A stretch of 64,000 nucleotides of DNA from the NCBI GenBank assembly GCA_035636095.1, contig DASPZU010000069.1:9199-73198 (forward strand), in the 5' to 3' direction. Below, piece after piece: positions 4,738 through 53,829 of the stretch. This stretch comes from Thermoanaerobaculia bacterium (lineage in GTDB: Bacteria > Acidobacteriota > Thermoanaerobaculia > Gp7-AA8). The translations under genes were made by a program, and so were the position numbers. Positions within the stretch are counted from its first letter, which is position 1. Each line of letters opens with the position of its first letter. Under the pieces are notes generated by a model. The model did not search any database and was not told the DNA's origin. It saw nothing but the letters and a program-made list of their open reading frames with translations.

Positions 4738-5528
4738 ACGGCAATGGGAGCCTTGATGCTCGGATGGGGATCGTAATTCTCGAGCGTGAAGTCGCCGAAG
4801 CGGAAATCGAAGATCGACTTCACGTCCGGATTCAATGTCATCGACGGCAGCGGTCTCGGGTCGCGTGTCAGTTGCAGGTTCGCCTGCTCGAGATGGTTCA
4901 GATACAAATGCGCGTCGCCCAGCGACAGAATCAGTTCGCCCGGGCCAAGGTCGCACACCTGCGCGACCATCATGGTGAGAAGCGCGTACGAGGCGATGTT
5001 GAAGGGCAGGCCCAGGAAAACGTCGGCGCTGCGCTGGTACATCTGACACGACAGCCGACCATTGCCGACCCAGAACTGCATGAAGGCGTGGCAGGGCGCC
5101 AGCGCCATTTTGTCGATGTCGGCCACATTCCAGGCGCTCACCATCAGGCGTCGCGAGTCGGGATTGCGCCGGATCTGCTCGATCACCTGCGAAATCTGGT
5201 CGATATGTTGACCATTTGGGGCGCTCCACGATCGCCACTGGTAGCCGTACACCGGACCGAGCTCGCCGCTGGCGTCCGCCCATTCGTTCCAGATCGTGAC
5301 GTTGTTTTCCTGCAGCCAGCGCACGTTGGTCTCGCCGCGCAGAAACCACAGCAGCTCGTAGATGATCGACCGCAGATGCACTTTCTTGGTGGTCACCAGC
5401 GGGAATCCGGCGCTCAGATCGAATCGCAGTTGATAGCCGAAGGTGCTCAGTGTGCCGGTGCCGGTGCGATCCGATTTCTTGGTGCCGTGATCGAGGATGT
5501 GACGGACGAGTTGCAGGTATTGCTGCAT
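4734..5528 (-). CDS. thyA: thymidylate synthase
   Basis: [48 protein letters not shown] is canonical ThyA. Confidence 0.95.
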
Positions 5529-5529
5529 G

Positions 5530-5553
5530 ATTAATTTTAGCGCGCAGAACCTA
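5530..5553 (+). promoter_or_regulatory. candidate sigma70-type promoter for lysA (perfect TATAAT at 5547-5552, weak -35 TTAATT)
   Basis: ttaattttagcgcgcagaacctataat with lysA ATG 15 nt downstream of the -10 implies a near-leaderless transcript. Confidence 0.35.
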
Positions 5554-5566
5554 TAATCCGCGCTCC

Positions 5567-6784
5567 ATGCTCAAAGTCGGTGAGCTCGCTGCCGAAGATC
5601 TCGCTGGCAAATACGGAACCCCACTCTACGCTTACGACGCCGCCATCATCCGACGACAGATCGCGCGGGTCAAAAAAGCTTTTGCTTCCCTCCCCTTCCG
5701 CCCGTTCTACGCCATGAAGGCCAACGGCGCACTGGCGATCCTCGACCTGATTCGTGACAATGGCTTCGGATGCGATTGCGTCTCTCCGGGCGAGATTTAC
5801 CTCGCGCGTCAGGCCGGCTTCACTCCCGACGAAATCTGGTTCACATGCTCGAATGTTTCCGACGAGGATCTTGGCGCGATCGGCGATCCGCGCATCGTCG
5901 TGAATGTCAACTCCGTCTCGGAGATCGACCGGGCCCTGACCCTCGACCTGCACAACCCGATCGCCTTGCGCGTGAACACCGATGTCGGTGCCGGGCATCA
6001 TGCCGACGTCGTCACGGCCGGCGGCGGCGTGAAATTCGGAATCGATCTCGCCCAGATCCGCGATGCCCGCATGATCGTGGAGGACTCCGGACGAAAAGTC
6101 GTCGGCCTGCACGCGCACATCGGATCGGGCATCGATGATCTCGCGCCGCTCATCGAGTCCGCACGCCGTCTGCTCGAGCTCTCTGGTGATTTTTCGAATC
6201 TCCGCTGGCTCAATTTCGGAGGCGGCATTTCGATTCCTTATCGTCCGGGCGATCCGGAGTTTCCGATCGACGACTACGGACGCGAGCTGACGCGAATTGC
6301 CGACCGCCTTCTGCGCGGGCGTGATCTGACTGCCATTCTCGAGCCCGGACGCTACGTCGTTGCGCAATCGGGCTACCTGCTTGCGCGCGTGACCGCCAAG
6401 CGAGTCAGCGGAGGATTGTGGTGGCTCGGCTGCGACACCGGATTCAATCATCTGGTCCGACCGTCGAAGTACGGCGCCTATCACCACATCGTGAACGCCT
6501 CCCGCAAGGCCAAGACGAAAGAGGAGTACGTTGTCGCCGGCAATCTGTGCGAGTCCGGCGATGTCTTTACGCGCGACGCCATGGGCAACGTGATTCCGCG
6601 CAAGCTCGATCACACCGAGGTCGGCGATCTGATCGCCTTTTGCGATGCCGGGGCGTACGGCTTCTCGATGGCCTCGCATTACAACGCGCGGCTGCTGCCG
6701 CCTGAGATCATGGTCGACGGCGCAGCGTCTCGACTCGTCCGTGAGCGGCAAACGCTCGAAGATCTCGTGAAAGGACAACGATGA
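5567..6784 (+). CDS. lysA: diaminopimelate decarboxylase
   Basis: PLP fold-III decarboxylase motifs ([29 protein letters not shown]). Confidence 0.9.
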
Positions 6785-8406
6785 AGCGACTGGCGATCCT
6801 CGCGATTTTTCTCGCGGCGTGCGCGACGACGCAGCAGAGGAAGATGCTCGATCTCAAAATTACCAACGGCCGCATCCTCGACGGCACGGGAGCGCCCTGG
6901 TATCGCGGCGACATCGGCGTTCGCGGCGACGCCATCGTCGCGATCGGCGACCTTTCCTCGACCTCTGCCGCGACGACTCTCGACGCGCGCGAGAACATCG
7001 TTTCCCCCGGCTTCATCGACCTCCTCGGCCAATCGCAAATGTCGGTGCTGATGGATCCGCACCTGGAAGCGAAAGTGCGGCAGGGCGTGACGACCGAGGT
7101 CACCGGCGAGGGAACATCGCCCGGTCCGGCCATTGCGAATCGCGAAACGGGACAGGCGCCGCGTTTTCCGCGCTTCGCGGACTACCTCGAGGCGCTCGAG
7201 AAGAATGGCAGTGCCATCAACTTTGCGTTGTTCGTCGGCGCGTCGAATCCGCGCGAGATCGTGATCGGCAATATCAACCGCCCGCCCACTGCCGACGAAG
7301 TGCGCGAGATGGAGAAGATCATCGATCAGGCCATGCGGGAAGGCGCGATCGGCATCTCGACTTCGTTGATCTATCTGCCCGCCATGTTTTCGACGACCGA
7401 GGAAATCATCAACATGGCCAGGGTCGCTTCGAAGTACGGCGGCGTGTACTTCAGCCACATTCGCGACGAGGGAGAGAAGATCGACTCTGCGCTCGACGAG
7501 GCATTTCAAATCGGCCGCGAGACCCACATCCCCATCAATATCTGGCACATGAAAGTCAGCGGTCCCGCGAACTGGGGACGGATGCCGCACGTCATCGACC
7601 GCATCATCGCGGCGCGCGGCGAGGGGATCGACGTTGCCGCGAATGTCTATCCCTACATCGCATCGTCGACGTCACTCAGCACTCTGGCGCCCGACTGGGC
7701 GCTGGAAGGCGGCTACTCGGAATTCAAAAAACGTCTCGCCGATCCGGAACAACGCGCGAAGATCGCGGCGGCGTTGCGCGATGAGGTGGCGCGGCGACGC
7801 GAACGCGGGATCTACGTCGCGCGCATTCCCAATCCTGCGCTGGCGCAGTACGAGAAGAAATTCATCGAGCAGATCGCGAGCGAGATGGGCGTGACCACCG
7901 AAGAGGCGCTGATGCGGCTGTTCAGCGAAACGCCCATGTCGCCGAGCGTGATCTATTTCTCGATGAACGAGGATGACGTCCAGTACGCGCTGAAGCAGCC
8001 CTTCGTCTCGATCGGCTCCGATTCGGGGTCGCCCACGCCGCAGGCCCGCGCCACCCAGGCGGGAGTGCATCCTCGCGCCTACGGTACGTTTCCCCGCGTT
8101 CTCGGACGCTACGTGCGCGACGCAAAACTCTTCACGCTCGAAGAGGCTGTCCGCAAGATGACCTCACAAGCCGCCGATCGCGCACAGCTCAGCGACCGCG
8201 GCGTACTGCGTCCGGGCATGAAGGCGGATATCGTGGTCTTCGATCCCGAGAAAATTCGAGATGTCGCGACTTACGAGGACCCGCATCATTTCAGCGAAGG
8301 CGTGATCGACGTGATCGTGAATGGAGTGCCGGTGCTGCGGGACGGCGAAATGACTGCGGCGCTGCCGGGACGAGCATTGCGAGGACGAGGATGGGAGAAA
8401 AAATGA
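6781..8406 (+). CDS. N-acyl-D-amino-acid deacylase (D-aminoacylase) family amidohydrolase, lipoprotein
   Basis: Lipobox LAAC. DITNGRILDGTGAPWYRGDIGVRGDAIVAIGDL and SPGFIDLLGQS metal-dependent hydrolase motifs. ATGA overlap with lysA stop. Confidence 0.8.
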   Translation: MKRLAILAIFLAACATTQQRKMLDLKITNGRILDGTGAPWYRGDIGVRGDAIVAIGDLSSTSAATTLDARENIVSPGFIDLLGQSQMSVLMDPHLEAKVRQGVTTEVTGEGTSPGPAIANRETGQAPRFPRFADYLEALEKNGSAINFALFVGASNPREIVIGNINRPPTADEVREMEKIIDQAMREGAIGISTSLIYLPAMFSTTEEIINMARVASKYGGVYFSHIRDEGEKIDSALDEAFQIGRETHIPINIWHMKVSGPANWGRMPHVIDRIIAARGEGIDVAANVYPYIASSTSLSTLAPDWALEGGYSEFKKRLADPEQRAKIAAALRDEVARRRERGIYVARIPNPALAQYEKKFIEQIASEMGVTTEEALMRLFSETPMSPSVIYFSMNEDDVQYALKQPFVSIGSDSGSPTPQARATQAGVHPRAYGTFPRVLGRYVRDAKLFTLEEAVRKMTSQAADRAQLSDRGVLRPGMKADIVVFDPEKIRDVATYEDPHHFSEGVIDVIVNGVPVLRDGEMTAALPGRALRGRGWEKK

Positions 8407-40713: not shown

Positions 40714-41540
40714 CCACGCGCACGATTCGGATCACCAACGACATCGCGTTCGGCGGTGATCATCCTCCCCTCTTCATCGCCGGACCGTGTGTGATCGAGT
40801 CGCGCGAGCACGCACTTGCGATGGCACGTACGCTGCGGAAGCTGCGGGACGCGCTGAAGATCAACCTGGTCTACAAATCGTCATTCGACAAAGCGAACCG
40901 CTCGTCGATCGACTCCTTCCGCGGACCCGGGCTCGAGGAAGGGCTCGACATTCTCCGCGCTGTGAAAGAGGAGACGGGCTTGCCGCTGATCTCGGACATC
41001 CACGAACCCGATCAGGCGGAGCCGGCCGCGAAGGTTCTCGACATCCTCCAGATCCCGGCCTTTCTCTGCCGCCAGACCGATCTGGTCGCGGCGGCGGCGC
41101 GCACCGGAAAGCCGGTCGGCGTGAAAAAAGGCCAATTCCTTTCTCCGGAGGAAACCAAGAACATCCTCGAGAAGGGCCACGAAGTCGGCAACGACCGCAT
41201 CTTCATCACCGAGCGCGGATCGTCGTTCGGCTATCAGAATCTGGTGGTCGACATGCGCGCGTTTCCGATCATTCGCGGATTCGGCGCGCCGGTGGTCTAC
41301 GACATCACGCATTCGATGCAGAAGCCGGGCGGCGAAGGAAAGCAGACCGGCGGCACGCCTGAGTTCGCGCGGCCGCTGGCGCGCGCGGCGGCGGCGGTGG
41401 GCGCGGACGGATTTTTCATGGAGGTGCACGACAATCCGCCAGCGGCGCTGTCGGACCGCACCACGCAGATCCGTCCCGACGCGGCGCGGTCGATCATCGA
41501 GGACGTGCTCGCAATTCGGGCGGCGCTGCAGCCCATCTGA
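40710..41540 (+). CDS. kdsA: 3-deoxy-8-phosphooctulonate synthase
   Basis: MTTRTIRITNDIAFGGDHPPLFIAGPCVIES...ITERG..HDNP. Confidence 0.93.
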   Translation: MTTRTIRITNDIAFGGDHPPLFIAGPCVIESREHALAMARTLRKLRDALKINLVYKSSFDKANRSSIDSFRGPGLEEGLDILRAVKEETGLPLISDIHEPDQAEPAAKVLDILQIPAFLCRQTDLVAAAARTGKPVGVKKGQFLSPEETKNILEKGHEVGNDRIFITERGSSFGYQNLVVDMRAFPIIRGFGAPVVYDITHSMQKPGGEGKQTGGTPEFARPLARAAAAVGADGFFMEVHDNPPAALSDRTTQIRPDAARSIIEDVLAIRAALQPI

Positions 41541-43246
41541 TGATGCGACGCGTCATCGCGATCGTCATCGCCGCCTACCTTGTGCTAGTTCTTTTCAACG
41601 GCTTCGTCCTGGTCGAGCTGTTTCTGCGGCGTGTCGGGATCCCGATTCTCTTCGCGGTCGCGGCGTCTCTCGCCTGCATCGGCAGCGGTTTTCTCGCGCG
41701 ACGGCTGCGCCCCGACATCGCGCTGAACTTCATCGTCGGATATCCGATTTTCGGCGCGATTTGTTTTCTGGCCGCGCTGATGAAGATCTCCGCCTGGACG
41801 ATGGTGCCGATGGTGGGGATCCTGGGTGGTGTGGGAGCGGCCGCCCTCGGCCGCTCAGCAGCGGGCGAGGCGCCCGCCGCCACACCGAAGCCCGCCACCA
41901 CGCTCGCCCTCGCGCTCATCGGCCTCTCGGCATTGATCGAGGCGCAAGCACCCCCCTCCACGCTCGACGAGCTCGCCTATCACCTCGCGGTGCCGTGGAC
42001 GTGGGTGAAGGAAGGGCGTGCGATCGATCTTCCGCTCGTTTCGCATTCGTACTTCCCTCTGGGCATCGAGTCGGCTGACATTCCCTTTCTCGCGATCCTC
42101 GGAACCGGCGGCGGCGTGGCGTCGCATTTCCTGCATCTCTTCGCGGCGATTGCCGTCGTCGTTGTCCTGCTTCGCAATACCAAGGATTGTCCGATCATGA
42201 CCGTCGCGATCGTCGCGACTCCGGCTCTGGCGCTGACCGCCGGCTGGTCGCTGGTCGACTGGATCGTTCTCGGCGTTTCGCTCGCGCTCGTGAACGCTCT
42301 CGAGAATGATGATGTCGCCACCGTTTCGGCAGCCGTCGCTGCCGGGCTGCTGACGAAATACACCTTCGTTCCGATCGCGCTGATTGCGATTCTCGTTACG
42401 CGAAGATTTCGGGGTGTGCTGCCTGGGGTAGCGGTCGGATCGATCTTCTTCATCCGAAATCTGATTCTGACCGGCAATCCGATCGCCCCCTTCTTCGGCG
42501 CGTTGGCACCGCACGTCGCCCACTATCGGGCCGGAGCGTTTTTCTCCGATTACGTTTTCGACGGCCGATTTATCGACGAGAGCCTGGGCGCGTCGCTCTT
42601 CATCGCATGCACGTTAACGGTTGGATTGCTGCCGTGGATCCTGATGGCAGCCGGTGCGCTTCTGTTTCTCCTCGCGCCCTCGGCGCGTCTTCTCGTCCCG
42701 TTCTTCGCGATCCCCGCCGCCCGCGCCCTCCCGCCCACCCGCCCGATCCGCGTGGCGCTCGCGATGGCGGTGGTCATGCAGCTTTTCCTGGTCGCATTTT
42801 TCACCGATCGCACGGAAGCATTCGCGCTGCTCTCCGGGCGTCTGGACGAAAAGCAATATCTGGCGACCATGCGGCCATCGACGACGACCATCGCGTCGGT
42901 CGACGCCGCGCTGCCGCCCAACTCGTGCACGCTGCTGATCGGTCTCAACGAGACCTACTGGTTTCAACATCGCGTGCGAGGAGGCGGCAACTTCGACGGT
43001 CAGCGCATTTCGGCGTATCTCGACGCCGGCAATTCCGATGCGCTTTACGCGCGGCTGCGTCGGGACGGGATCACGCACATCGCGGTATTCGCGACGCCAC
43101 CACCAACGGCAGTGGAGACCAAAGTCGAAGAGCGCCAGACCATTCTGTCGACGGGAGCAGGGCGCACGCTAGCGCAGACTCTCGATCGTCACACGCTCAG
43201 CGTCACGCAGCGCGGAAACGCAACTCTGTTCGCGCTTAAACCGTGA
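41540..43246 (+). CDS. polytopic membrane protein, ArnT/PMT-like glycosyltransferase (GT39/GT83-like), tentative
   Basis: About 11 TM helices then a soluble C-domain. DE motif in first loop. LPS context. Confidence 0.4.
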
Positions 43247-44448: not shown

Positions 44449-44520
44449 GTGCTTAGTGCTGAGTCCTGAGTGCTGAGTCCCGCCCACTCAGGACTCAGGA
44501 CTCAGCACTCAGGACTCAGA
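44449..44520. repeat. heptamer-palindrome element family E copy 1: (CTGAGTC/CTGAGTG)x3 - CCGCCC - (ACTCAGG/ACTCAGC)x4
   Basis: Direct reading. Contains lptE TGA stop. Lies in the metK leader. Confidence 0.9.
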
Positions 44521-45025
44521 ATCCCTCGAGCAGATTCGTCACCAGCGTCTCCGCGAAGCGCTGCGCGATCTCGGCGATGGCGCGTGTTTCCTGGTCGAAG
44601 GCGTCCGTCGATTCGAGGTTGACCTGGTAGTTTTCGGCGAAACGGTATTGATCGTTCTTCCACAGCACCTTGTCTTCGTTGCGGTGGTCGACCAGCTCGA
44701 TCTTGGCGGTGATCGAGATCTGATACTGCGTCGCGCGCCCTTGCGGATTGAAGGCGATCGGAAAGATCCCGAAGCTGTCGATGGAGCCGCGCAGGATGGC
44801 GTCGGCGCTGTTGGGATTGCTGACCAGCTTCAGGCGGCCGCGCGCGACCACCTCGTCGGCCACCGATTGCGTGACCAGCTGCTCCAGGCCCACGCGCGTG
44901 GTGCGATTGACAAAGGCCGGTACCTCGACCGTGTGAATCTTCGGATCGAGAGAATTGCTGCGGCCCACGAGCGCATAGCCGCACGCGGACAGCATCGCGA
45001 GTGGCGCGAGGAGCGCTTTTTTCAC
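44516..45025 (-). CDS. lptE: LPS-assembly lipoprotein LptE-like
   Basis: Lipobox LSAC followed by GYAL (as in CGWHLR of LptE). Size and beta-rich pattern fit. Confidence 0.5.
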   Translation of the reverse strand: MKKALLAPLAMLSACGYALVGRSNSLDPKIHTVEVPAFVNRTTRVGLEQLVTQSVADEVVARGRLKLVSNPNSADAILRGSIDSFGIFPIAFNPQGRATQYQISITAKIELVDHRNEDKVLWKNDQYRFAENYQVNLESTDAFDQETRAIAEIAQRFAETLVTNLLEGF

Positions 45026-45045: not shown

Positions 45046-45852
45046 CTAAAGCCCGGGCGCTGTCGCTTTCGGTCGGCTCAGCTCCGCATCAATCACCTTC
45101 GCGAACTCTTCGTACGGCTTCGCGCCGGACAAGAAATGACCATTCACGAAAAACGCCGGAGTTCCGCTGACCCCGAGCCCTTTGGCCTCGGCAATGTCTG
45201 CATCGATGGCACTCTTGCCGCGCGTGCCGTCAAGGTCGGATTCGAAGCGCTTCATGTCCAGGCCGAGGTCGCGCGCGTACTGGAGCAAGTACTGACGTTG
45301 AATCTTCGGCTGATTCGCGAACAGCTTGTCGTGATACTCCCAGAATTTTCCCTGATTCTGTGCGGCCATCGCTGCGAGATGCGCCAATGGTGAGTCTTTG
45401 TGAAAATCGAGCGGATAGTGTTTCCAAACGATTCGCACCTTGTCCCCGTAGGTTTTTCGGATCTGCTGGAGAGTCGGACCGACTCTCGAACAGAACGGTC
45501 ACTGGAAATCGGAGAATTCGGCGATCGTGACGGCTGCCGTGATCGGGCCTTCCATCGGCGCGCCGTCGATCTTGACAGGATAGACGCGATTGGGATCAGG
45601 TCCACGCTGTCCAGGCGCCGCGCTGCGCGCTGCGACCCGCTCCACGTTTGCGGAGAGCTTCGCAAGGCGAGAATCGATCTGGTCAAGTCGAGACTCGAGG
45701 TTGTTAGCTGCCGTGCGAGTCGATCGGGCATTGAAGTAACTGGAGACGAGGAGAACGGACAAAACCGCGATCGTCGCACCCTGCACCATGACCGCGAGCG
45801 AGGATCGGCGCTCCTCGGATTCGATTTTGGGTGGTTCTCGATGTTTACCCAT
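45046..45852 (-). CDS. DsbA-like thioredoxin-fold oxidoreductase with in-frame TGA at the first CxxC position (candidate selenoprotein, UPFC)
   Basis: ORF-track pieces 45499..45852 and 45046..45438 are one reading frame joined through TGA at 45501..45499. EFSDFQ[TGA]PFC aligns to EFSDFQCPFC of the upstream paralog. 7-bp hairpin GAGAGUC-GGUCC-GACUCUC lies 11 nt 3' of UGA. Confidence 0.6.
45469..45487 (-). ncRNA. candidate bacterial SECIS hairpin inside coding sequence
   Basis: Perfect 7-8 bp stem, apical loop GGUCC (contains GGUC), 11-nt spacer from UGA. Confidence 0.45.
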
Positions 45853-46644
45853 CTAGCGAGTTCCCCCACCTCCGCCTGGCGGCATCAGAACAGAGTCGAT
45901 CGCCGACTTGAACTCCGCGTACGATTTGGCGCCAACGAGCTTTTTGGTGATTTTCACGGAACCGTTTGGCTGGACGACACCGATGAGAAATGACGGCGTT
46001 CCCGAGATGCCTGCACCGCCCGCGTCGGCGATGTCTTTCTTGATCTCGGTGGCGAAGCGCCCGCTGTCGAGACATTGCTGAAAGAGCGAAACATTCAGTC
46101 CCAAAGCTTCAGCGTGCTTGGGAAGATCGGCGGCTGCGATGTTCTGCTGATTGGCGAAGAGGCGATCGTGCATGTCCCAGAATTTCCCTTGCTCGCCGGC
46201 ACAATGCGCCGCCTCGGCCGCCTTTTCGGCGTTCTGATGAAAGTCGAGCGGATAGTCGCGCCACACATACTTCACCTTGCCGGTGTCTACGTAGTCCTTG
46301 AGGATTGCGGGATATGTGTCTTTGTCATACCGGCCACAGAACGGACACTGAAAGTCGGAGAACTCAATGACGGCCACTTTCGCGTTTGGGTTCCCCTTGA
46401 ATGGTTCTTTGTCGACATTGACAGGCGCAATGGGAAGCGCATCGGCCGCGGGTCGCCCTTGCCCCTGCTGCGCGAGTAATTTGTGAATCTCTTGCAGTTC
46501 TTTCAGGATCGCCTTCTGGCTCTCACTTAGAGAATCGATTGCCTTCTTAAAGTCATCGGTCTGTGTCCCTTGGGCCGATGCGGCAACCGGTGCGATCACC
46601 ATCAGCAATGCAACCATCGTTCGAGCGAAACGCGCCTTCTTCAT
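45853..46644 (-). CDS. DsbA-like thioredoxin-fold oxidoreductase (Cys paralog, CPFC)
   Basis: VIEFSDFQCPFCGRY...GTPSF motifs. Signal/TM MKKARFARTMVALLMVIAPVAASA. ORF track over-extends to 46695 through a hairpin. Confidence 0.8.
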   Translation of the reverse strand: MKKARFARTMVALLMVIAPVAASAQGTQTDDFKKAIDSLSESQKAILKELQEIHKLLAQQGQGRPAADALPIAPVNVDKEPFKGNPNAKVAVIEFSDFQCPFCGRYDKDTYPAILKDYVDTGKVKYVWRDYPLDFHQNAEKAAEAAHCAGEQGKFWDMHDRLFANQQNIAAADLPKHAEALGLNVSLFQQCLDSGRFATEIKKDIADAGGAGISGTPSFLIGVVQPNGSVKITKKLVGAKSYAEFKSAIDSVLMPPGGGGGTR

Positions 46645-46685
46645 GAACCCCCCTCGTTTGGGCGATGACGATTCAAGAATGAGGC

Positions 46686-46719
46686 CCGTCCGCACGTGCG
46701 GGCGCGCACGTGCGGACGG
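46686..46719. repeat. perfect 15-bp-arm hairpin CCGTCCGCACGTGCG-ggcg-CGCACGTGCGGACGG
   Basis: Direct reading. Intergenic within minus-strand operon. Confidence 0.8.
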
Positions 46720-46723
46720 AACC

Positions 46724-47206
46724 CTATTGGATCGTCATGCTCCCCTGATTGACCGTTGCCGTCGGCAGCGCGGTCTGGCCCAGGAGCACGCCGATCGTCC
46801 CTTGATCGTTGGCGTTTGTCGTGATCGTGGCCGTGAACGGGACACCAAGAAGCGGCGGGGTGCCGTCGCCCATGTTGATCGTGCACGTGCCGGAGAAAGT
46901 AGCGATGTTCGCCGCGTTTCGGGAACCGCTGGTGGCCTTGCCTTCAATCACGATGTTTTGCTGCAGACCTCCAAGAGAAACACCGAGCAGAATTGTGCAA
47001 AACTGGCCAAGCGATCCCGTGGTATCGATCTGCACGCCGTAGCCGGACTGCAGGCCGTTGATCGGAACTCCATTGAAAGTTGTACCAGGCGGAAAGATCC
47101 CGCCCGCGCCGGCCGTCACCGAGGTCTGCGCGAGGGCGGGCGGACTCCCGCCGAAAATCACGCCGAGGGCGATGGCGGTGAGCAAAACTGCAAACCTGAT
47201 CTTCAT
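46724..47206 (-). CDS. small secreted Gly/Thr-rich hypothetical protein
   Basis: Signal peptide MKIRFAVLLTAIALGVIFGGSPPALA. Confidence 0.5.
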   Translation of the reverse strand: MKIRFAVLLTAIALGVIFGGSPPALAQTSVTAGAGGIFPPGTTFNGVPINGLQSGYGVQIDTTGSLGQFCTILLGVSLGGLQQNIVIEGKATSGSRNAANIATFSGTCTINMGDGTPPLLGVPFTATITTNANDQGTIGVLLGQTALPTATVNQGSMTIQ

Positions 47207-47217
47207 CTCTAGTCTCC

Positions 47218-50200
47218 TTAGTTCGTCGGATGCTTCTGGATGTTTCCGTTGCTCAGCGTATGGCAGCCGGTATCCATCATCAGGGTGCAGGAAGTGGGCG
47301 CATTGGGATCCTGGTCGCTCGGGAGGCGCTGAATGCGGATCCTGTCCGAATTTGCTCCAGGCTCTGTGTTGTCTTCGACTGTAACCCTGTAGATGCAGCC
47401 CGTCTTCTTATCCCTCACCTTGAACGTGATGCAGTTGGTGCAGCTGGGGCAGTCGCCGTTATTGCCGCAAGGAGTTACCAGTCCGATGACTGGCCCATTG
47501 ATGTGGAACCCCGATGTGTGGTCGAGGCCGTTGAACTCGCCATCGGTGGGCCCGTTCGAGGGTGTCCTGAAGTTGAAACCGAAGCTCCACTTGTTGCCGT
47601 TGGTGGCGATGAATTGACCGCCGCCGGTGTACTTAACGGCCGTGGGGGTACCGGTGCAGATGCCGCCGCTACAGGTGTCGTTGCTGGTGCAGGCATCCCC
47701 GTCGTTGCACGGAGCGGTGTTGTTGTTGTGCACGCAGCCCGTCGCTGGGTTGCACGAGTCGTCGGTACAGACGTTGTTGTCGTTGCAGTTGGGCGGCGAC
47801 CCGCCCACGCACGAGCCGAGGGCGCAGGTGTCGTTGGTGGTACAGGCGTTCCCGTCGCTGCACGGGGCGGTGTTGTTGGTGTGCGCGCATCCCGTGGCCG
47901 GGTTGCACGAGTCGTCGGTGCAGACGTTGCCGTCATCGCAGTTGGGCGCAGGCCCGCCTATGCAGGTTCCACCACTACAGGTGTCATTGGTCGTACAGGC
48001 GTTGCCGTCGCTACAAGGATTGGTGTTGTTGGTGTGCACGCAGCCCGTGACCGGGTTACAACTGTCATCGGTGCAGACATTGTTGTCGTTGCAATTGGCA
48101 GCCGGCCCGCCGACGCATGCGCCCGCGGCGCAAGTGTCATTAGTCGTACAGGCGTTCCCGTCGTTGCAGGGGCCGGTGTTGTTGGTGTGCACGCAGCCTG
48201 TGGCCGGAACGCAGCTGTCGTCGGTGCAGACGTTGCCGTCATCGCAGTTGGGCGCCGGCCCGCCGACACAGGTTCCACCACTACATGCGTCATTGGTCGT
48301 ACAGGCGTTTCCGTCGCTACACGGGTTGGTGTTGTTGGTGTGCACGCAACCCGTCTGTGTGTTGCAGGTGTCGGTCGTACAGACGTTGCCGTCGTCGCAG
48401 TTGGGCGCCGGCCCGCCGACGCACGTTCCGTTGGCGCAGGTGTCGCTCGTGGTGCAGGCGTTCCCGTCATTGCACGGGTTGGTGTTGTTGATATGTGTAC
48501 ATCCGCTGGCCGGGTTGCAGGCGTCGGTCGTACAGACATTCCCGTCGTCGCAGTTAGGCGCAGGCCCGCCGACGCAGGTTCCACCACTACAGGTGTCATT
48601 GGTGGTACAGGCGTTCCCGTCGCTACAGGGATTGGTGTTATTGGTGTGCACGCAGCCCGTGGCCGGGTTACAACTGTCGTCGGTGCAGACATTGCCGTCG
48701 TCGCAGTTGGGCGCAGGCCCGCCTACGCACGCGCCACCCGCGCAGGTGTCATTGGTAGTACAAGCGTTCCCGTCGCTGCAGGGGTTGGTGTTGTTGACAT
48801 GCGTACACCCACTGGCGGGGTTGCAGCCGTCGGTCGTACAGACATTCCCGTCGTCGCAGTTAGGCGCAGGCCCGCCGACGCACGCTCCCGCGGCGCAAGT
48901 GTCGTTGGTCGTACAGGCGTTCCCGTCGTTGCAGGGGGCGGTGTTGTTAATGTGCACGCAGCCCGTGGCCGGGTTACACGAGTCGTCGGTGCAGACGTTA
49001 TTGTCATTGCAGTTGGGAGCTGGCCCGCCGACACACGTTCCACCCGCGCAGGTGTCGTTCGTGGTACAGGCGTTCCCGTCGTCGCAGGAGGCGGTGTTGT
49101 TGGTGTGCGTGCATCCGCTCGCCGGATCGCACGCATCGTCGGTACAGACGTTGTTGTCGTTGCAGTTAGGCGCTGGCCCGCCCACGCACGTCCCACCCGA
49201 ACACGTGTCATTGGTGGTGCAGGCGTTCCCGTCGCTACAGGAGGCGGTGTTGTTAGTGTGCACGCAGCCTGTGGCCGGATTACAGCTGTCGTCAGTGCAG
49301 ATGTTGCCGTCGTCGCAGTTGGGCGCAGGCCCTCCTACGCACGTGCCACCCGCACAGGTGTCATTGGTGGTACAGGCGTTCCCGTCGTTACAGGGGGCGG
49401 TGTTGTTGGTGTGCACGCAGCCTGTGGCGGGGTTACAGCTGTCGTCGGTGCAGACATTGTTGTCGTTGCAGTTAGGTGCAGGCCCTCCAACGCAGGCTCC
49501 ACCGCTACAGGTGTCATTGGTGGTACAGGCGTTCCCGTCGTTGCAGGGGGCGGTATTGTTGGTGTGGAAGCATCCGCTCGTCGGGTCGCAAGCATCATCG
49601 GTACAGACGTTGCCGTCGTCGCAGTTGAGTGGGGCGCCGGGGTTACAGGTCCCCCCACCGCACACCTCATGGCCATTGCACACCGTGTTGTCATCACATG
49701 AGGCGGTATTGTTGGTGTGTACGCACCCTGTCGCGGGATTGCAGCTGTCGTCAGTGCAGACGTTGTTGTCGTTGCAATTGACCGCGCTGCCCTCGCAGAA
49801 CCCCAGGGAGTTACAGGTGTCGTTGGTGGTGCAGGCGTTGCCGTCGTTGCAGGAAGTCCCAGTGGCCGGAGTGTGGCGACAGGCATGCAAAGTCGTATCG
49901 CATGTATCGGTGGTACACGGGTTGCCGTCGCTACACTGCGAGGCGTCGGTGCATCCCTGAAAAAGGATACAGTCCGAAGGGTCGGAGTTTGGTATCTCGG
50001 ACGGATAGGAGCACGCGTCAACCAACGTGGCGCTCGTGCCCGCCCCGAAGTCGGCAAGATCGACCGAGCAAGTGGCGACTGTGTCCGAGGGGTAGGCGTC
50101 ATCGGGTGGGAAGGGATCGGTGTTCTGCTGCGACACCGAGCACGTGGTGTTCTTGCCTGGCCCCGGCATACAGGCACCACCGCCGAGGCAGCCCGATTCG

Positions 50201-50772
50201 CTTGAGCAGGGGGCGCCGGCATTGGTCCCGCCGACACACATGTTCCCAGCGATCTGTACACTACCAGTACACCTGTCAGGCCTACTGTCGCTGCAGTTGA
50301 ACAGCCTCACTGCTCCCAGTGTGGCGAATTGGCCATGGTCCCTTATGGTCACGCAGACCGCGAGGTTGACATTGCCATTACCGTTGGTGTCATAGAGGGA
50401 GCAGGCATCGCCGGTGTTTCCGCCGGAGAGAGTTACGAGGTCCCAGTCCCACTGTGTAAAGACCTCGAACGGGCTAGTTCCGGGCTCCACACAGAATCGT
50501 GTCAGGTCCTTCTGACCAGGTACGTCGTTGGCCCCTTGCACGTCGTTTTGACAACTAACGAACACGGGCTGGGCAGCCGCCGGAGGTGCGGCCAGCGCAA
50601 TCAGCGAAATCAAAGTCGCTATGAGACAAAGAGACCGGAAGGTCAGCCCGAAGCTTCTATTACGGCTGCATCGGGTCAACCTTCCGGCGTTGCTTCTATA
50701 GCTGCTTTGAGGGGCGTTAAGTAGAGAGGCTGCGCACAGCCGCGTACAGCGGCAGGAATCTGGGTCTCGCAT
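47218..50772 (-). CDS. giant secreted cysteine-rich protein with about 17 tandem 46-aa Dictyostelium-CTDC-type repeats (CxDGNxCTxDxCxxxTGCxHTNNTxPCxDGNACTTNDTCxGGxCVGGPAPN)
   Basis: Translation is strongly periodic with about 190 Cys. Signal-like LCLIATLISLIALAAPPAAAQP. N-terminal start uncertain (first Met far upstream of signal peptide). Confidence 0.85.
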   Translation of the reverse strand: MRDPDSCRCTRLCAASLLNAPQSSYRSNAGRLTRCSRNRSFGLTFRSLCLIATLISLIALAAPPAAAQPVFVSCQNDVQGANDVPGQKDLTRFCVEPGTSPFEVFTQWDWDLVTLSGGNTGDACSLYDTNGNGNVNLAVCVTIRDHGQFATLGAVRLFNCSDSRPDRCTGSVQIAGNMCVGGTNAGAPCSSESGCLGGGACMPGPGKNTTCSVSQQNTDPFPPDDAYPSDTVATCSVDLADFGAGTSATLVDACSYPSEIPNSDPSDCILFQGCTDASQCSDGNPCTTDTCDTTLHACRHTPATGTSCNDGNACTTNDTCNSLGFCEGSAVNCNDNNVCTDDSCNPATGCVHTNNTASCDDNTVCNGHEVCGGGTCNPGAPLNCDDGNVCTDDACDPTSGCFHTNNTAPCNDGNACTTNDTCSGGACVGGPAPNCNDNNVCTDDSCNPATGCVHTNNTAPCNDGNACTTNDTCAGGTCVGGPAPNCDDGNICTDDSCNPATGCVHTNNTASCSDGNACTTNDTCSGGTCVGGPAPNCNDNNVCTDDACDPASGCTHTNNTASCDDGNACTTNDTCAGGTCVGGPAPNCNDNNVCTDDSCNPATGCVHINNTAPCNDGNACTTNDTCAAGACVGGPAPNCDDGNVCTTDGCNPASGCTHVNNTNPCSDGNACTTNDTCAGGACVGGPAPNCDDGNVCTDDSCNPATGCVHTNNTNPCSDGNACTTNDTCSGGTCVGGPAPNCDDGNVCTTDACNPASGCTHINNTNPCNDGNACTTSDTCANGTCVGGPAPNCDDGNVCTTDTCNTQTGCVHTNNTNPCSDGNACTTNDACSGGTCVGGPAPNCDDGNVCTDDSCVPATGCVHTNNTGPCNDGNACTTNDTCAAGACVGGPAANCNDNNVCTDDSCNPVTGCVHTNNTNPCSDGNACTTNDTCSGGTCIGGPAPNCDDGNVCTDDSCNPATGCAHTNNTAPCSDGNACTTNDTCALGSCVGGSPPNCNDNNVCTDDSCNPATGCVHNNNTAPCNDGDACTSNDTCSGGICTGTPTAVKYTGGGQFIATNGNKWSFGFNFRTPSNGPTDGEFNGLDHTSGFHINGPVIGLVTPCGNNGDCPSCTNCITFKVRDKKTGCIYRVTVEDNTEPGANSDRIRIQRLPSDQDPNAPTSCTLMMDTGCHTLSNGNIQKHPTN

Positions 50773-51147: not shown

Positions 51148-53739
51148 TCAGCGAACGACAACGTTTACCAATTTTCCTGGTACATAGACCGTTCTTACAA
51201 CTTGCTTCCCGCTCACCCATTGTTGAATCTTGTCGTTGCTCTGCACTGCAGCCAGGATCTGCTCCTCGACCGGAGGATTCGGCACCTCGACGTGCCCGCG
51301 CAGCTTTCCGTTGACCTGCACCACGATCGTGATGATGTCCTCCTGCATCAGCTTCGGATCGGCGACCGGCCACTTCGACTGCAGGACGAAGCGCTTGTTG
51401 CCGAGCATCTCCCACAACTCTTCGGTGATATGCGGCGCGAACGGATGCAGCAGCTGCAGTAGAACGGTGTAGCTTTCGCGCACGTTGGCGCCGGCGGCCA
51501 GCGCCTCGCCGATCGCGTTGGAGAGCTCCATCAGCGCCGAGATGGCGGTGTTGAACTCGAAACGCTCGATGCGCTGCGTCACGGCGGCGATGGTCTGGTG
51601 GATTTTGCGGATGAGTGCCGCCGAGGCCGGCGGCGCTCCACCGGCGGCTGCACTGTCGGCCATGTTCCACACGCGGCTGAGGAAGCGATACGCGCCGATG
51701 ACGCCCTCGTCCGACCAGGCCGCTTCCTTCTCGGGCGGGGCGATGAACAGCGTGTACACGCGTTCGGTGTCGGCGCCGTAACGTTCGATCAGCGCGTCGG
51801 GCGGCACGACATTGAACCGCGACTTCGACATCTTCCCCACCTCGGGAATCAACTCGACGCCGTTGCGAAAGGGTTTTTTGTCGCGAAACTCGACCTCATC
51901 CAGCGGAACCCAGCTCAGACCGCATGACGGATCGCGAAAACCTTCCTTCGTGATCATGCCCTGGTTGAAGAGCCGCGCGAATGGCTCTTCGAAGCTGACC
52001 AGGCCCATGTCATACAGCGTGCGGCAGATGAACCGCGAGTACAGCAGATGCAGGATGGCGTGCTCGATGCCGCCGATGTATTGATCGACGGGCAGCCAGC
52101 GATTGGCCATCTTCGTATCAAAGATTCTTGTTTCGTCGCGCGGCGAGATGAATCGCAGGTAGTACCACGACGAGTCGACGAATGTGTCCATCGTGTCGGT
52201 CTCGCGGCGAGCCTGGCCTCCGCAGGTCGGACAGGTCGCGTTGACGAACTTGGGATCCTTGGCGAGCGGATTTCCCTCTTTGCCCGTGAACTGGACGTCC
52301 ACCGGCAGCACGACCGGCAAGTCCCTTTCTTGTACCAGAACAATTCCGCATTTGTCGCAGTACAAAACCGGAATCGGCGTTCCCCAATATCGCTGGCGCG
52401 AAATCAGCCAGTCGCGCAGCCGATAGCGCACCATCTTTTTGCCGATTTTGCGACGCTCGATCTCCGCGATGATTTTCTCGATCGCCTTCGGCGTGGGAAG
52501 GTCGGTGATGATGCCGGAGTTGACCGAGATACCGTTTTCTTTGTCGACGTAAGCCCCCTCACCCGGCACTTCGTGCCACCCTCTCCCCGCTTCGCGGGGC
52601 GAGGGCCCTCCCGCCGAACTCCCTCGCCCCGCTTGCGGGGAGAGGGACGGGGTGAGGGGTGCCACCACCATCCGGACCGGCAGCCCGTACTGTTTCGCGA
52701 ACTCGAAGTCGCGTTCATCGTGTCCCGGCACGGCCATGATCGCGCCGGTGCCGTACTGCATCAGCACGAAGTTGCCGAGCCAGATCGGGATCTTTTCTTC
52801 CGTGAAGGGATTGATGGCGTACTTGCCGGTGAAGCGGCCTTCCTTCCCCGCCTCCTGGCGCTCGAGCGCGCTCTGATTGCGCACGCCCGCGATCCAGCGC
52901 TCGAGCGCGGTCCGGTCCGGACTGTCCGCGATGAGCGCAGCAACGTCGGGATGCTCCGGCGCGAGCACCATGAAGGTCGCGCCGTAGATCGTGTCGGGGC
53001 GCGTTGTGAAGACGCGAATCGGATGACCGAGGTCGGGTATGGGGAAGTCGACGTCGGCGCCGAGGGACCGGCCGATCCAGTTGCGCTGCATGACTTTGAC
53101 CTGCTCGGGCCAGTGCTCCAGCGCGTCGAGGCCGTCGTCGAGGCGATCGGCGTAGGCCGTGATCTTGAGGAACCATTGCTCCAGCTCGCGCTGCACGACT
53201 TCCGTACCGCAGCGTTCGCATCGGCCGTCGATCACCTGCTCGTTCGCGAGCACGGTCTGATCGCTGGGGCACCAGTTGACCGGAGCCTTGCCGCGGTACG
53301 CCAGGCCGCGTTTATAGAGCTGGATGAAGAGCCACTGGTTCCACTTGTAGTAGCCGGGATGGCATGAGGCGATCTCTTTGGACCAGTCGTAGAGGATCCC
53401 CCATCGCTGGAACTGTTTTTTCTCGCGCGCGATGTTCGAGAGCGTCCACTCGCGTGGATGGACGCCGCGATTGATGGCCGCGTTTTCGGCCGGCAATCCG
53501 AAAGCGTCCCAGCCCATCGGATTGAGGGCCGCGCGGCCGCGCATCATCAGATATCGATAGAGCGCATCGCCGAGGATGTAGTTGCGTCCGTGCCCGACGT
53601 GCAGATCGCCCGACGGGTACGGAAACATGTTGAGCATGTAGTACTTCTGGCCGGGCTTCGAGACATCGATCTCGGCCACGCGGGCATCGGCCCATGCGCG
53701 CTGCCATTTCTCTTCGATTGCTTTTGGGTCGTACGGCAT
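51148..53739 (-). CDS. leuS: leucyl-tRNA synthetase (contains in-frame REP-like insertion)
   Basis: HVGHGRNY...KMSKS and editing domain. ORF track start 53799 is translated repeat, so start taken at [13 protein letters not shown]. Confidence 0.95.
52573..52662. repeat. GC-rich REP-like element (family F copy 2) inserted in-frame in leuS, encoding roughly [29 protein letters not shown]
   Basis: First 30 nt CCACCCTCTCCCCGCTTCGCGGGGCGAGGG identical to intergenic copy at 17934. Second hairpin CCCCGCTTGCGGGG. Confidence 0.8.
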
Positions 53740-53755
53740 GAGGATCGCGAAGTAT

Positions 53756-53829
53756 AAGTCCTGAGTCCTGAGTGCTGAGTCCTGAGCACGCCCACCCACT
53801 CAGGACTCAGGACACAGGACTCAGGACTC
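53756..53829. repeat. heptamer-palindrome element family E copy 2: (TCCTGAG)x4 - CACGCCCACCC - (ACTCAGG)x4
   Basis: Direct reading. Contains dtd TGA stop. Lies in the leuS leader. Confidence 0.9.

Follow-up and report, generated by a model that had tools for sequence, protein, structure and literature searches.

Accessory DsbA-family enzymes occur beside particular genes: DsbL/DsbI is encoded next to assT, a sulfotransferase gene, and SrgA is encoded inside the pef fimbrial cluster. DsbA-like proteins that contain selenocysteine (Sec, U) have been catalogued since 2005-2006. The accessory paralogues, DsbL/DsbI of uropathogenic Escherichia coli and plasmid-encoded SrgA of Salmonella, are believed to act on a particular set of substrates (PMC6067686); the DsbA-like UxxC selenoproteins form a recognised, bioinformatically defined family (PMC1794560; PMC13188914), and what they do in the cell is described as largely uncharacterised (PMC13188914). 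Here we analyse a block of four genes in a 64-kb stretch of DNA assigned to a Thermoanaerobaculia bacterium of the phylum Acidobacteriota (contig DASPZU010000069.1); this whole stretch is the window referred to below. The genes encode a giant cysteine-rich repeat protein (the giant), a small secreted protein, and two DsbA-like oxidoreductases, DsbA1 and DsbA2. An earlier note, made from the DNA alone, had proposed that the two enzymes are a dedicated folding system for the giant. We consider it somewhat likelier true than false that this block is an allele of an acidobacterial cassette, polymorphic and coding for surface or secreted proteins, together with accessory oxidative-folding enzymes.

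The giant is the presumed substrate. It begins with a predicted signal peptide, read from the sequence as ending in AAAQ before P near residue 67 (translation might instead start at a later in-frame TTG around 50676), and it matches Pfam Dicty_CTDC (PF00526) in 15 stretches (E 6e-86, 282 bits); the secreted CTDC-repeat protein of 1184 residues described in the earlier note is thereby borne out. Its measurements needed correction: instead of about 17 repeats of 46 residues there are 14 full units of 51 residues with a partial leading unit (period 153 nt, 12.8 copies, 78% matches in Tandem Repeats Finder), and instead of about 190 cysteines there are 147 (12.4%). Eight cysteines per repeat is right, and repeat dissection places them in two four-cysteine half-units of the CxDxNxCTxDxC type. 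Past the predicted signal peptide lie 142 cysteines, and the mature protein could therefore form up to about 71 disulfides. Residues 58-290 matched no Pfam family. At the C-terminus, the NCBIfam model NF041523 (post_COAP_1) scores 45.2 bits against a cut-off of 40. The AlphaFold2 (AF2) model of this domain is an all-beta small barrel (pLDDT 74), built on 4 sequences because the word-indexed homologue search gave only 3 matches. The giant did not match choice-of-anchor P (NF040603). GC skew (+0.10) and AT skew (-0.24) are maximal over the repeat array (window 48001-50000), which probably reflects the monotonous codon content of the repeats and not a replication feature.

The small protein ties the giant to a wider family of cassettes. 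It carries a predicted signal peptide (PALA before QT), and AF2 models it as an 8-stranded beta-barrel (pLDDT 89). The earlier description of a small secreted protein stands as far as the signal peptide is concerned; the protein is not an incidental one, since the family pairs with post-COAP-1. This family is rare, with 106 matches in the word-indexed search and 282 representatives among 1.84 billion in the exhaustive one. None of 104 full-length relatives (about 155-168 aa) has a Pfam family, and the two cysteines of the small protein are not conserved across the family. We surveyed the upstream partner in 2 genomic loci, 80 metagenome loci and 10 contig look-ups: in every case with enough recovered sequence on the upstream side, the immediate same-strand upstream gene ends in a post-COAP-1-type domain, with the pattern TGGGQ...FGFNAK...GHxNYxNH...F.G.C...VEDNGEPG...GNIQIH. 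Five sister proteins tested against post_COAP_1 score 37.7-141 bits, two of them just under the 40-bit cut-off. The cargo part of the upstream protein varies, and includes Dicty_CTDC, Disintegrin-like, Beta_helix, SBBP propeller, DUF11, Big_3_5, and Kelch with CTDC. In 9 of the 10 longer exhaustive-search matches examined, the small domain follows directly behind post_COAP_1 (72.7-93.2 bits) in a single polypeptide. Because the two are fused in other organisms, the small protein probably works physically with the post-COAP-1 barrel; the fusions argue for such cooperation, and the C-terminal domain of the giant would have the small protein as its obligate partner.

Provisionally, we treat the small protein and the post-COAP-1 domain as distant paralogues. 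Aligned with a 45-sequence post-COAP-1 alignment (hhalign, alignment against alignment), the small family gives a probability of 84% and E 7e-6 over 95 columns; its profile against the single sequence of the giant's C-terminus gives a probability of 0.2%. The AF2 models of the two are similar small all-beta barrels, neither with a close solved relative. Two other candidates were rejected. As a choice-of-anchor P homologue, the small protein reaches a probability of 0.8% in hhalign against the choice-of-anchor P protein of the closest metagenome-assembled genome (MAG; L012 among our numbered loci), and NF040603 does not match it even at E up to 1. As an outer-membrane barrel of the OmpX/OmpA/PagP type, its best Foldseek matches are OmpX and PagP, at E of at least 0.04 and TM-scores of 0.29-0.38; it ends in GSMTIQ and has no beta-signal, no Trp, one Tyr and six Phe. 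The absent beta-signal, few aromatics and low TM-scores are why it is not classed as an outer-membrane protein. No Pfam or NCBIfam model recognised the small barrel, and in the libraries and literature searched no characterised family matches the module of post-COAP-1 and small barrel. In the L012 genome a genuine choice-of-anchor P and post-COAP-1 protein (6063-7091; NF040603 138 bits, NF041523 141 bits) is placed between DsbA1 and an inverted Sec-DsbA2. Sister cassettes also carry disintegrin-like tandem repeats, CRxxxGxCDxAExCxGxSxxCPxD (L112 11-2146, L123 4656-6950, L176 3135-5981, L011 22-1674); these match the C-terminal half of Pfam Disintegrin at E 3e-58 to 3e-67, and are therefore a bacterial disintegrin-like repeat.

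Behind this pair, a DsbA is a recurrent companion. The order post-COAP-1 protein, small protein, DsbA is found in genomes and metagenome contigs whose neighbouring genes are unrelated (fumarate reductase in L091, nitrate reductase in L093, a two-component system in L176, ilvD in L178), so the linkage that the earlier note wished to see checked in relatives is conserved. A DsbA gene follows the small gene in L011, L012, L091, L093, L097, L099, L100, L108, L109, L115, L176 and L177, and lies near it in L113, L178, L179 and L180; at least 12 dereplicated loci have it directly behind the cassette. The set of enzymes differs from locus to locus: DsbA1 only (L177), Sec-DsbA2 directly behind the small gene (L011, L131, L146), DsbA1 with an inverted Sec-DsbA2 (L012, L097, L176, L178), or Sec versions of both (L113). 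Some Cys-rich cassettes have another oxidoreductase instead of or besides DsbA, a PDZ-TlpA-like protein with a WCxPC motif (L113, L127, L178). This protein of about 800 aa stands behind the small gene (L113 1689-4115, L127 1580-4171, L178 1858-4212) and its parts, as read from the sequence, are an N-terminal region like caspase/legumain, a PDZ domain and, at the C-terminus, a TlpA-like WCxPC thioredoxin domain; L179 has a shorter TlpA-like protein (4835-5650).

The presence of an oxidoreductase follows the cysteine content of the cargo. We compared 31 cassettes, dereplicated at 90% small-protein identity and having at least 60 cargo residues and enough downstream sequence, and counted an oxidoreductase as present if a Dsb or TlpA-like gene lay within 4.5 kb downstream. 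Such a gene was present in 16 of the 20 cassettes with at least 5% cargo Cys and in 1 of the 11 below that threshold (Fisher p = 3.5e-4, in a test that ignores phylogeny, on contigs many of which are short). In the closer clade, with small proteins at least 56% identical, the same table gives 15 of 16 Cys-rich cassettes against 1 of 3 Cys-poor ones, and that one is a pseudogene. The sole Cys-poor positive, L117/L120, combines DUF11 cargo with an lptE 89% identical to that of the window; its DsbA1 is a truncated remnant that has lost the N-terminus and an internal segment, and DsbA2 is absent. These counts suggest that oxidoreductases accompany the cassette mainly when the cargo is Cys-rich. 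They supersede a table restricted to DsbA (9/13 against 2/12, p = 0.015), drawn up before six loci and the TlpA-like proteins were added; a scan of 80 DsbA2-homologue loci for Cys-rich open reading frames (ORFs) was too noisy in high-GC DNA, and the sample anchored on the small protein was used in its place.

Two further observations concern the surroundings of such genes. In a Bryobacteraceae MAG (L018 1999-9418), the gene order is a protein of 699 aa (7% Cys), two proteins read as FGE-sulfatase-like, a DsbA1-like protein and Sec-DsbA2; the DsbA pair has the same order as in the window, and the small protein is missing. A response regulator of the LuxR/GerE type recurs beside cassettes (L012 5244-5915, L091 10355-10945, L092 2013-2654, and L176 577-2941, there with a HisKA_3 kinase), and may be dedicated to them; the block in the window contains none.

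Judging from its sequence and those of its homologues, DsbA2 is very probably a selenoprotein of 268 aa with the active site UPFC. Its FSDFQ-TGA-PFC aligns with FSDFQ-CPFC of DsbA1, and over all the loci that were fetched, TGA stands at the column of the first Cys of CxxC in 28 non-identical homologues, against TGC or TGT in 174. Reading frame and sequence are conserved on both sides of the TGA in the Sec homologues, and among the genome matches TGA occurs in Acidobacteriota, Planctomycetota and a single Myxococcota MAG with four tandem copies. Just past the codon lies a hairpin resembling a selenocysteine insertion sequence (SECIS), with the apex GGUCC/GUC; the apical GGUC is similar to the loop of E. 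coli fdhF to which SelB binds. The 48 nt downstream of the DsbA2 UGA form an interrupted 14-bp hairpin (-20.8 kcal/mol, z -3.7, 0 of 200 shuffles), whereas the matching stretch of DsbA1 is unfolded (z -0.5). The hairpin top, GTCGGTCCGAC, is present in 26 of 28 Sec forms against 1 of 174 Cys forms, and is nearly invariant across Acidobacteriota, Planctomycetota and Myxococcota. At these positions the Sec forms keep the codons AGG-GTC-GGT-CCG-ACC almost without change, whereas the Cys forms use CGC, GTG, CCC/CCG and ACG codons and frequently specify different residues. Compensatory changes occur in three stem pairs, with a covariation of 0.130 versus 0.097, above 500 of 500 shuffles and all slid controls. 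The suggestion in the earlier note that one DsbA contains Sec is thus strongly supported by the TGA at the Cys column, the Sec-specific hairpin and the covariation. Rfam, at its gathering threshold, gave no match over the whole window, and whether it holds a model for such a hairpin was not checked. No tRNA-Sec was found in the window, which has no tRNA, and an unverified E. coli SelD sequence, used as tblastn query, matched no ORF there.

Predicted selenocysteine also appears elsewhere among these paralogues. Genes of the DsbA1 type have TGA at the Cys of CxxC in L113 (around 4459) and L115 (around 2243), followed by a different hairpin, UUCUGCG...GGCACGUCCGUGAGACGGCC...CGCAGA (-24.5 kcal/mol, z -3.5), possibly the SECIS of the sister paralogue in a second variant. 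Myxococcota genomes hold tandem arrays of 3-9 DsbA paralogues (L032 6233-11113, L033 5240-11086, L082 6875-10183, L062 10052-12100), and the L062 MAG has four consecutive UxxC DsbAs with the same SECIS top.

Both enzymes belong to the DsbA fold family. DsbA1 scores 114 bits against Thioredoxin_4 (PF13462, 1e-32) and 65 bits against DSBA (PF01323, 8e-18); DsbA2, with U replaced by C, scores 103 bits against DSBA (2e-29) and 98 bits against Thioredoxin_4, where the cut-offs are 23-26 bits. The translations hold CPFC in DsbA1 and U(TGA)PFC in DsbA2, together with the cis-Pro loops GTPSF and GTPAF, and the earlier assignment of two periplasmic DsbA-like oxidoreductases agrees with these scores and motifs. 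From the sequences, DsbA1 is predicted to have a helical extension at its N-terminus as well as a cleavable signal peptide, and DsbA2 an N-terminal membrane anchor. The best solved relatives are the chains 4PWO/4PWP, deposited as 'DsbA' (E 3e-24 and 6e-22; the nearest to DsbA1 at E 6e-22), and Bacillus subtilis BdbD follows at about 1e-15. The 4PWO chain, which we take to be Corynebacterium diphtheriae MdbA with an N-terminal membrane anchor like that of DsbA2, has the same EFSDF-CPFC active-site context, and DsbA1 and DsbA2 appear to resemble the MdbA/BdbD type. Membership in the Rcas_1661 thioredoxin-like (seleno)lipoprotein family (NF041057) was rejected at 135 and 115 bits against a cut-off of 190, with no lipobox Cys; the two proteins are related to that family but not members of it.

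The four genes follow one another on the minus strand, as the earlier note had it, with spacings of 11, 79 and 0 nt. The gene count stood and the extent did not: lptE lies on the same strand 20 nt beyond DsbA2, and for this reason the co-oriented run is longer than had been stated. In the 79-nt gap before DsbA1 lies a terminator-like hairpin, which the earlier note mentions as little as the post-COAP-1 domain, although it named a terminator between the genes as a finding that would speak against its proposal. The 101-nt region around this hairpin has a folding energy (dG) of -53.6 kcal/mol and z -4.95. A hairpin of other sequence, with compensating arms and followed by CGTTTTTGAATG, stands at the same place in L096, L097, L100, L012, L099 and L109; the T-run behind it is weak in the window (CATTCTT) and reads TTTTT in relatives. 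The hairpin looks like an intrinsic terminator or attenuator. A sigma-70 scan of 44.3-51.4 kb gave 0 promoter-like sites, with a model that does not cover acidobacterial promoters and is hence uninformative.

These features can be assembled into a mechanism. The core of the cassette would be a large protein exported by the Sec pathway, made of variable cargo and a constant C-terminal post-COAP-1 beta-barrel and followed by the small paralogous barrel; the barrel pair might serve in docking, anchoring or export. In the window the cargo would be about 15 CTDC repeats. Soluble DsbA1 (CPFC) and membrane-anchored DsbA2 (UPFC) would form and reshuffle the disulfides of this cargo in the periplasm, the Sec enzyme presumably supplying faster thiol-selenenylsulfide exchange, and re-oxidation of the DsbAs would depend on DsbB or VKOR encoded elsewhere. 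The giant and the small gene would form the main transcription unit, and a leaky terminator hairpin would let lower-level read-through reach DsbA1, DsbA2 and lptE. Such attenuated read-through is probable; we prefer it to a separate promoter because just 35-60 nt remain before the DsbA1 start.

Several observations weigh against reading the two DsbAs as the cassette's own folding enzymes, apart from the limits of the Fisher test. The strong, conserved terminator-like hairpin splits the small gene from DsbA1, which leaves a shared transcript conjectural. The Cys-rich cassettes L092, L112, L123 and L175 have no oxidoreductase within 4.5 kb, and L177, at the same leuS...lptE site, has DsbA1 only. 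Sec-DsbA2 homologues stand alone among housekeeping genes in other Acidobacteriota (L014, L016, L029), and for that reason DsbA2 may be a general periplasmic oxidase that merely lies beside lptE and the cassette. No DsbB/VKOR-type family is among the precomputed Pfam matches of genes within 10 kb on either side, where several genes, including one for a 568-aa membrane protein, have no family at all; the earlier claim of a self-contained system is not upheld by this search. Its central proposal, a disulfide-forming pair dedicated to a Cys-rich substrate, survives in part: the linkage recurs and tracks cargo Cys, and the hairpin, the four cassettes without an enzyme and the solitary Sec-DsbA2 genes tell against it. 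These same three observations would fit DsbA1 and DsbA2 being housekeeping oxidoreductases that share a variable leuS-lptE region with the cassettes; if surface-protein cassettes insert between leuS and lptE by recombination, the adjacency is positional and not functional. The site from leuS to lptE-metK does hold differing sets of cassettes and oxidoreductases in the window, L012, L117, L177 and L179. We regard such hitch-hiking as plausible but rather unlikely: the order of small gene then DsbA occurs away from lptE as well, beside fumarate reductase, nitrate reductase, ilvD and two-component system genes; oxidoreductases follow the Cys content of the cargo (16/20 against 1/11); and at the lptE site DsbA1 has decayed beside Cys-poor cargo, which would be unexpected for a sole housekeeping oxidase.

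The proximity of lptE raises another possibility, namely that the pair serves lipopolysaccharide-transport assembly by forming the disulfides of LptD and so belongs with lptE, not with the giant. E. coli LptD needs DsbA and DsbC for its non-consecutive disulfides, lptE is 20 nt away on the same strand, and a DsbA lies beside lptE in L177, L179 and L012 too. The distribution makes this improbable, and we largely reject it: lptE adjoins at most 4 of 80 genome loci with DsbA2 homologues (tblastn with LptE matched only L012, and 4 loci had no result line), DsbA stands behind cassettes without a nearby lptE in L091, L093, L176 and L178, and L117 has an intact lptE, only a remnant of DsbA1 and no DsbA2. 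Finally, the TGA of DsbA2 might be a genuine stop that leaves the gene split or dead and DsbA1 alone functional. Public gene callers do split DsbA2 into ORFs of 117 and 130 aa (or 96 and 107 aa), and no Sec machinery or tRNA-Sec is seen in the 64 kb. A stop is scarcely credible given 28 homologues from three phyla whose TGA falls precisely on the catalytic Cys column, with frame and sequence kept on both sides, a hairpin in 26 of 28 Sec and 1 of 174 Cys forms with synonymous-site constraint and compensatory changes, and a family of DsbA-like UxxC selenoproteins that is already recognised (PMC1794560, PMC13188914). We thus return to the cassette with accessory folding enzymes as the account we favour, and a broader form of it can be put forward tentatively. 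Post-COAP-1 and the small barrel, split or fused, may be an unrecognised C-terminal docking, anchoring or export module that displays interchangeable adhesin-like cargo in soil Acidobacteriota; Cys-rich alleles might carry their own folding kit (DsbA, often UxxC, and/or PDZ-TlpA), and the Sec-DsbA might be specialised for dozens of tandem disulfide knots. This is possible, if doubtful.

The ORF list and translations place the four co-oriented genes between leuS and lptE on the minus strand, in the order giant, small gene, DsbA1, DsbA2 (Table 1). The DNA of the window is part of the 160-kb soil-metagenome contig Ga0137388_10000008, with near-identical copies in other soil assemblies, and the nearest genomes are Acidobacteriota MAGs. 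Public gene calls show the giant whole in L002 and L003 and an antisense ORF in its place in L001 and L004; there, Joint Genome Institute calls on the same contig give a 723-aa antisense ORF and a 196-aa fragment (L001 7247-9989, L004 5549-8291). All gene callers cut DsbA2 at the TGA, and these annotation artefacts conceal both proteins. Because callers split the selenoprotein and in some assemblies swap the giant for an antisense ORF, such systems are nearly invisible in current annotation. Outside the block, a gene for a 568-aa multi-pass membrane protein without a Pfam family (41540-43246, plus strand) is kept in the near-identical contigs and is convergent with metK, with an 11-nt overlap at the metK 3' end.

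Table 1. Coordinates of the four-gene block and its neighbours in the 64-kb window (minus sign, minus strand)
Feature	Position	Strand	Extent	Remarks and basis
leuS, upstream neighbour	51148-53799	-		
Giant CTDC-repeat gene	47218-50772	-	1184 aa from ATG	ORF and translation
Giant, N-terminal Cys-containing region	49927-50571	-	residues about 68-282 (about 215 residues)	
Giant, CTDC repeat array	47635-49926	-	14 full 51-aa units (residues 333-1046) and a partial leading unit	
Giant, C-terminal post-COAP-1 domain	47230-47631	-	residues 1048-1181	
Small partner gene	46724-47206	-	160 aa	ORF and translation
Terminator-like hairpin	46685-46720	-	16 bp, G+C-rich	3 nt past the stop of the small gene, then CAUUCUUGAAUC; terminator scan
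DsbA1 gene	45853-46644	-	263 aa from ATG	behind the ribosome-binding site GAGGGGGG
DsbA2 gene	45046-45852	-	268 codons	one in-frame TGA at 45499-45501; translation
SECIS-like hairpin in DsbA2	45462-45494	-	6-bp lower stem, 1x1 internal loop, 8-bp upper stem	5 nt past the UGA
lptE, context, outside the cassette	44516-45025	-		Pfam LptE 1.8e-18; neighbourhood gene calls

The most interesting additions of this analysis are the well-supported SECIS that crosses phyla and the split-or-fused two-barrel module with polymorphic cargo. The locus and its relatives offer a testable substrate for DsbA-like selenoproteins in the form of giants built of tandem disulfide knots; if the proposal is true, a long-uncharacterised family gains a first concrete class of substrates. 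With a Cys-type and a Sec-type DsbA side by side, there is also a natural comparison on why a cell spends selenium on a disulfide catalyst. The uncharacterised C-terminal module, post-COAP-1 with its 160-aa partner, occurs with at least 7 unrelated types of cargo, and may represent a new device for surface display or sorting in Acidobacteriota, where envelope biology is poorly known.

Several known systems resemble parts of this locus. Dictyostelium CTDC proteins (PF00526) share with the giant its 15 Pfam matches and the CxDxNxCTxDxC-type half-units; the giant differs in being bacterial, with a bacterial signal peptide and a bacterial-type C-terminal domain, and sister cassettes carry Disintegrin-like repeats where it has CTDC repeats. 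With choice-of-anchor P/post-COAP-1 proteins (NF040603, NF041523) the giant has in common a post_COAP_1 domain above the curated cut-off. It lacks the COAP domain, however, and post-COAP-1 here stands behind many cargo domains of unrelated kinds, always with a small paralogous barrel as a separate companion or in fusion.

Among the enzymes, the chains 4PWO/4PWP and BdbD are the closest solved relatives, and the active-site context of 4PWO is identical; they are Cys-using general oxidases of monoderms, whereas the proteins here come from a diderm acidobacterium and are paired, one with Sec. DsbL/DsbI and SrgA are likewise extra DsbA-family oxidases, encoded besides or separately from the general system (PMC6067686). 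Here the genes lie directly behind the presumed substrate gene. The window differs in having two oxidoreductases, one of them a selenoprotein, in a presumed substrate with about 71 predicted disulfides in tandem repeats, in enzymes that resemble the actinobacterial/Firmicute-type MdbA/BdbD and not the enterobacterial DsbA clade, and, relative to DsbL/DsbI, in showing no DsbB/DsbI-type re-oxidase family among the neighbouring gene calls. DsbA2 is assigned to form 1 of the DsbA-like selenoproteins described by Zhang, Gladyshev and co-workers (PF01323, UxxC), which has the DSBA fold and Sec at the same N-terminal position (PMC1794560, PMC13188914). Both also have Cys homologues and a SECIS hairpin right after the UGA (PMC1794560, PMC13188914). 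Beyond that family as catalogued, the DsbA2 type has a genomic partner, the Cys-rich cassette, in several lineages, and related DsbA1-type proteins (L113, L115) with a putative second, different Sec hairpin.

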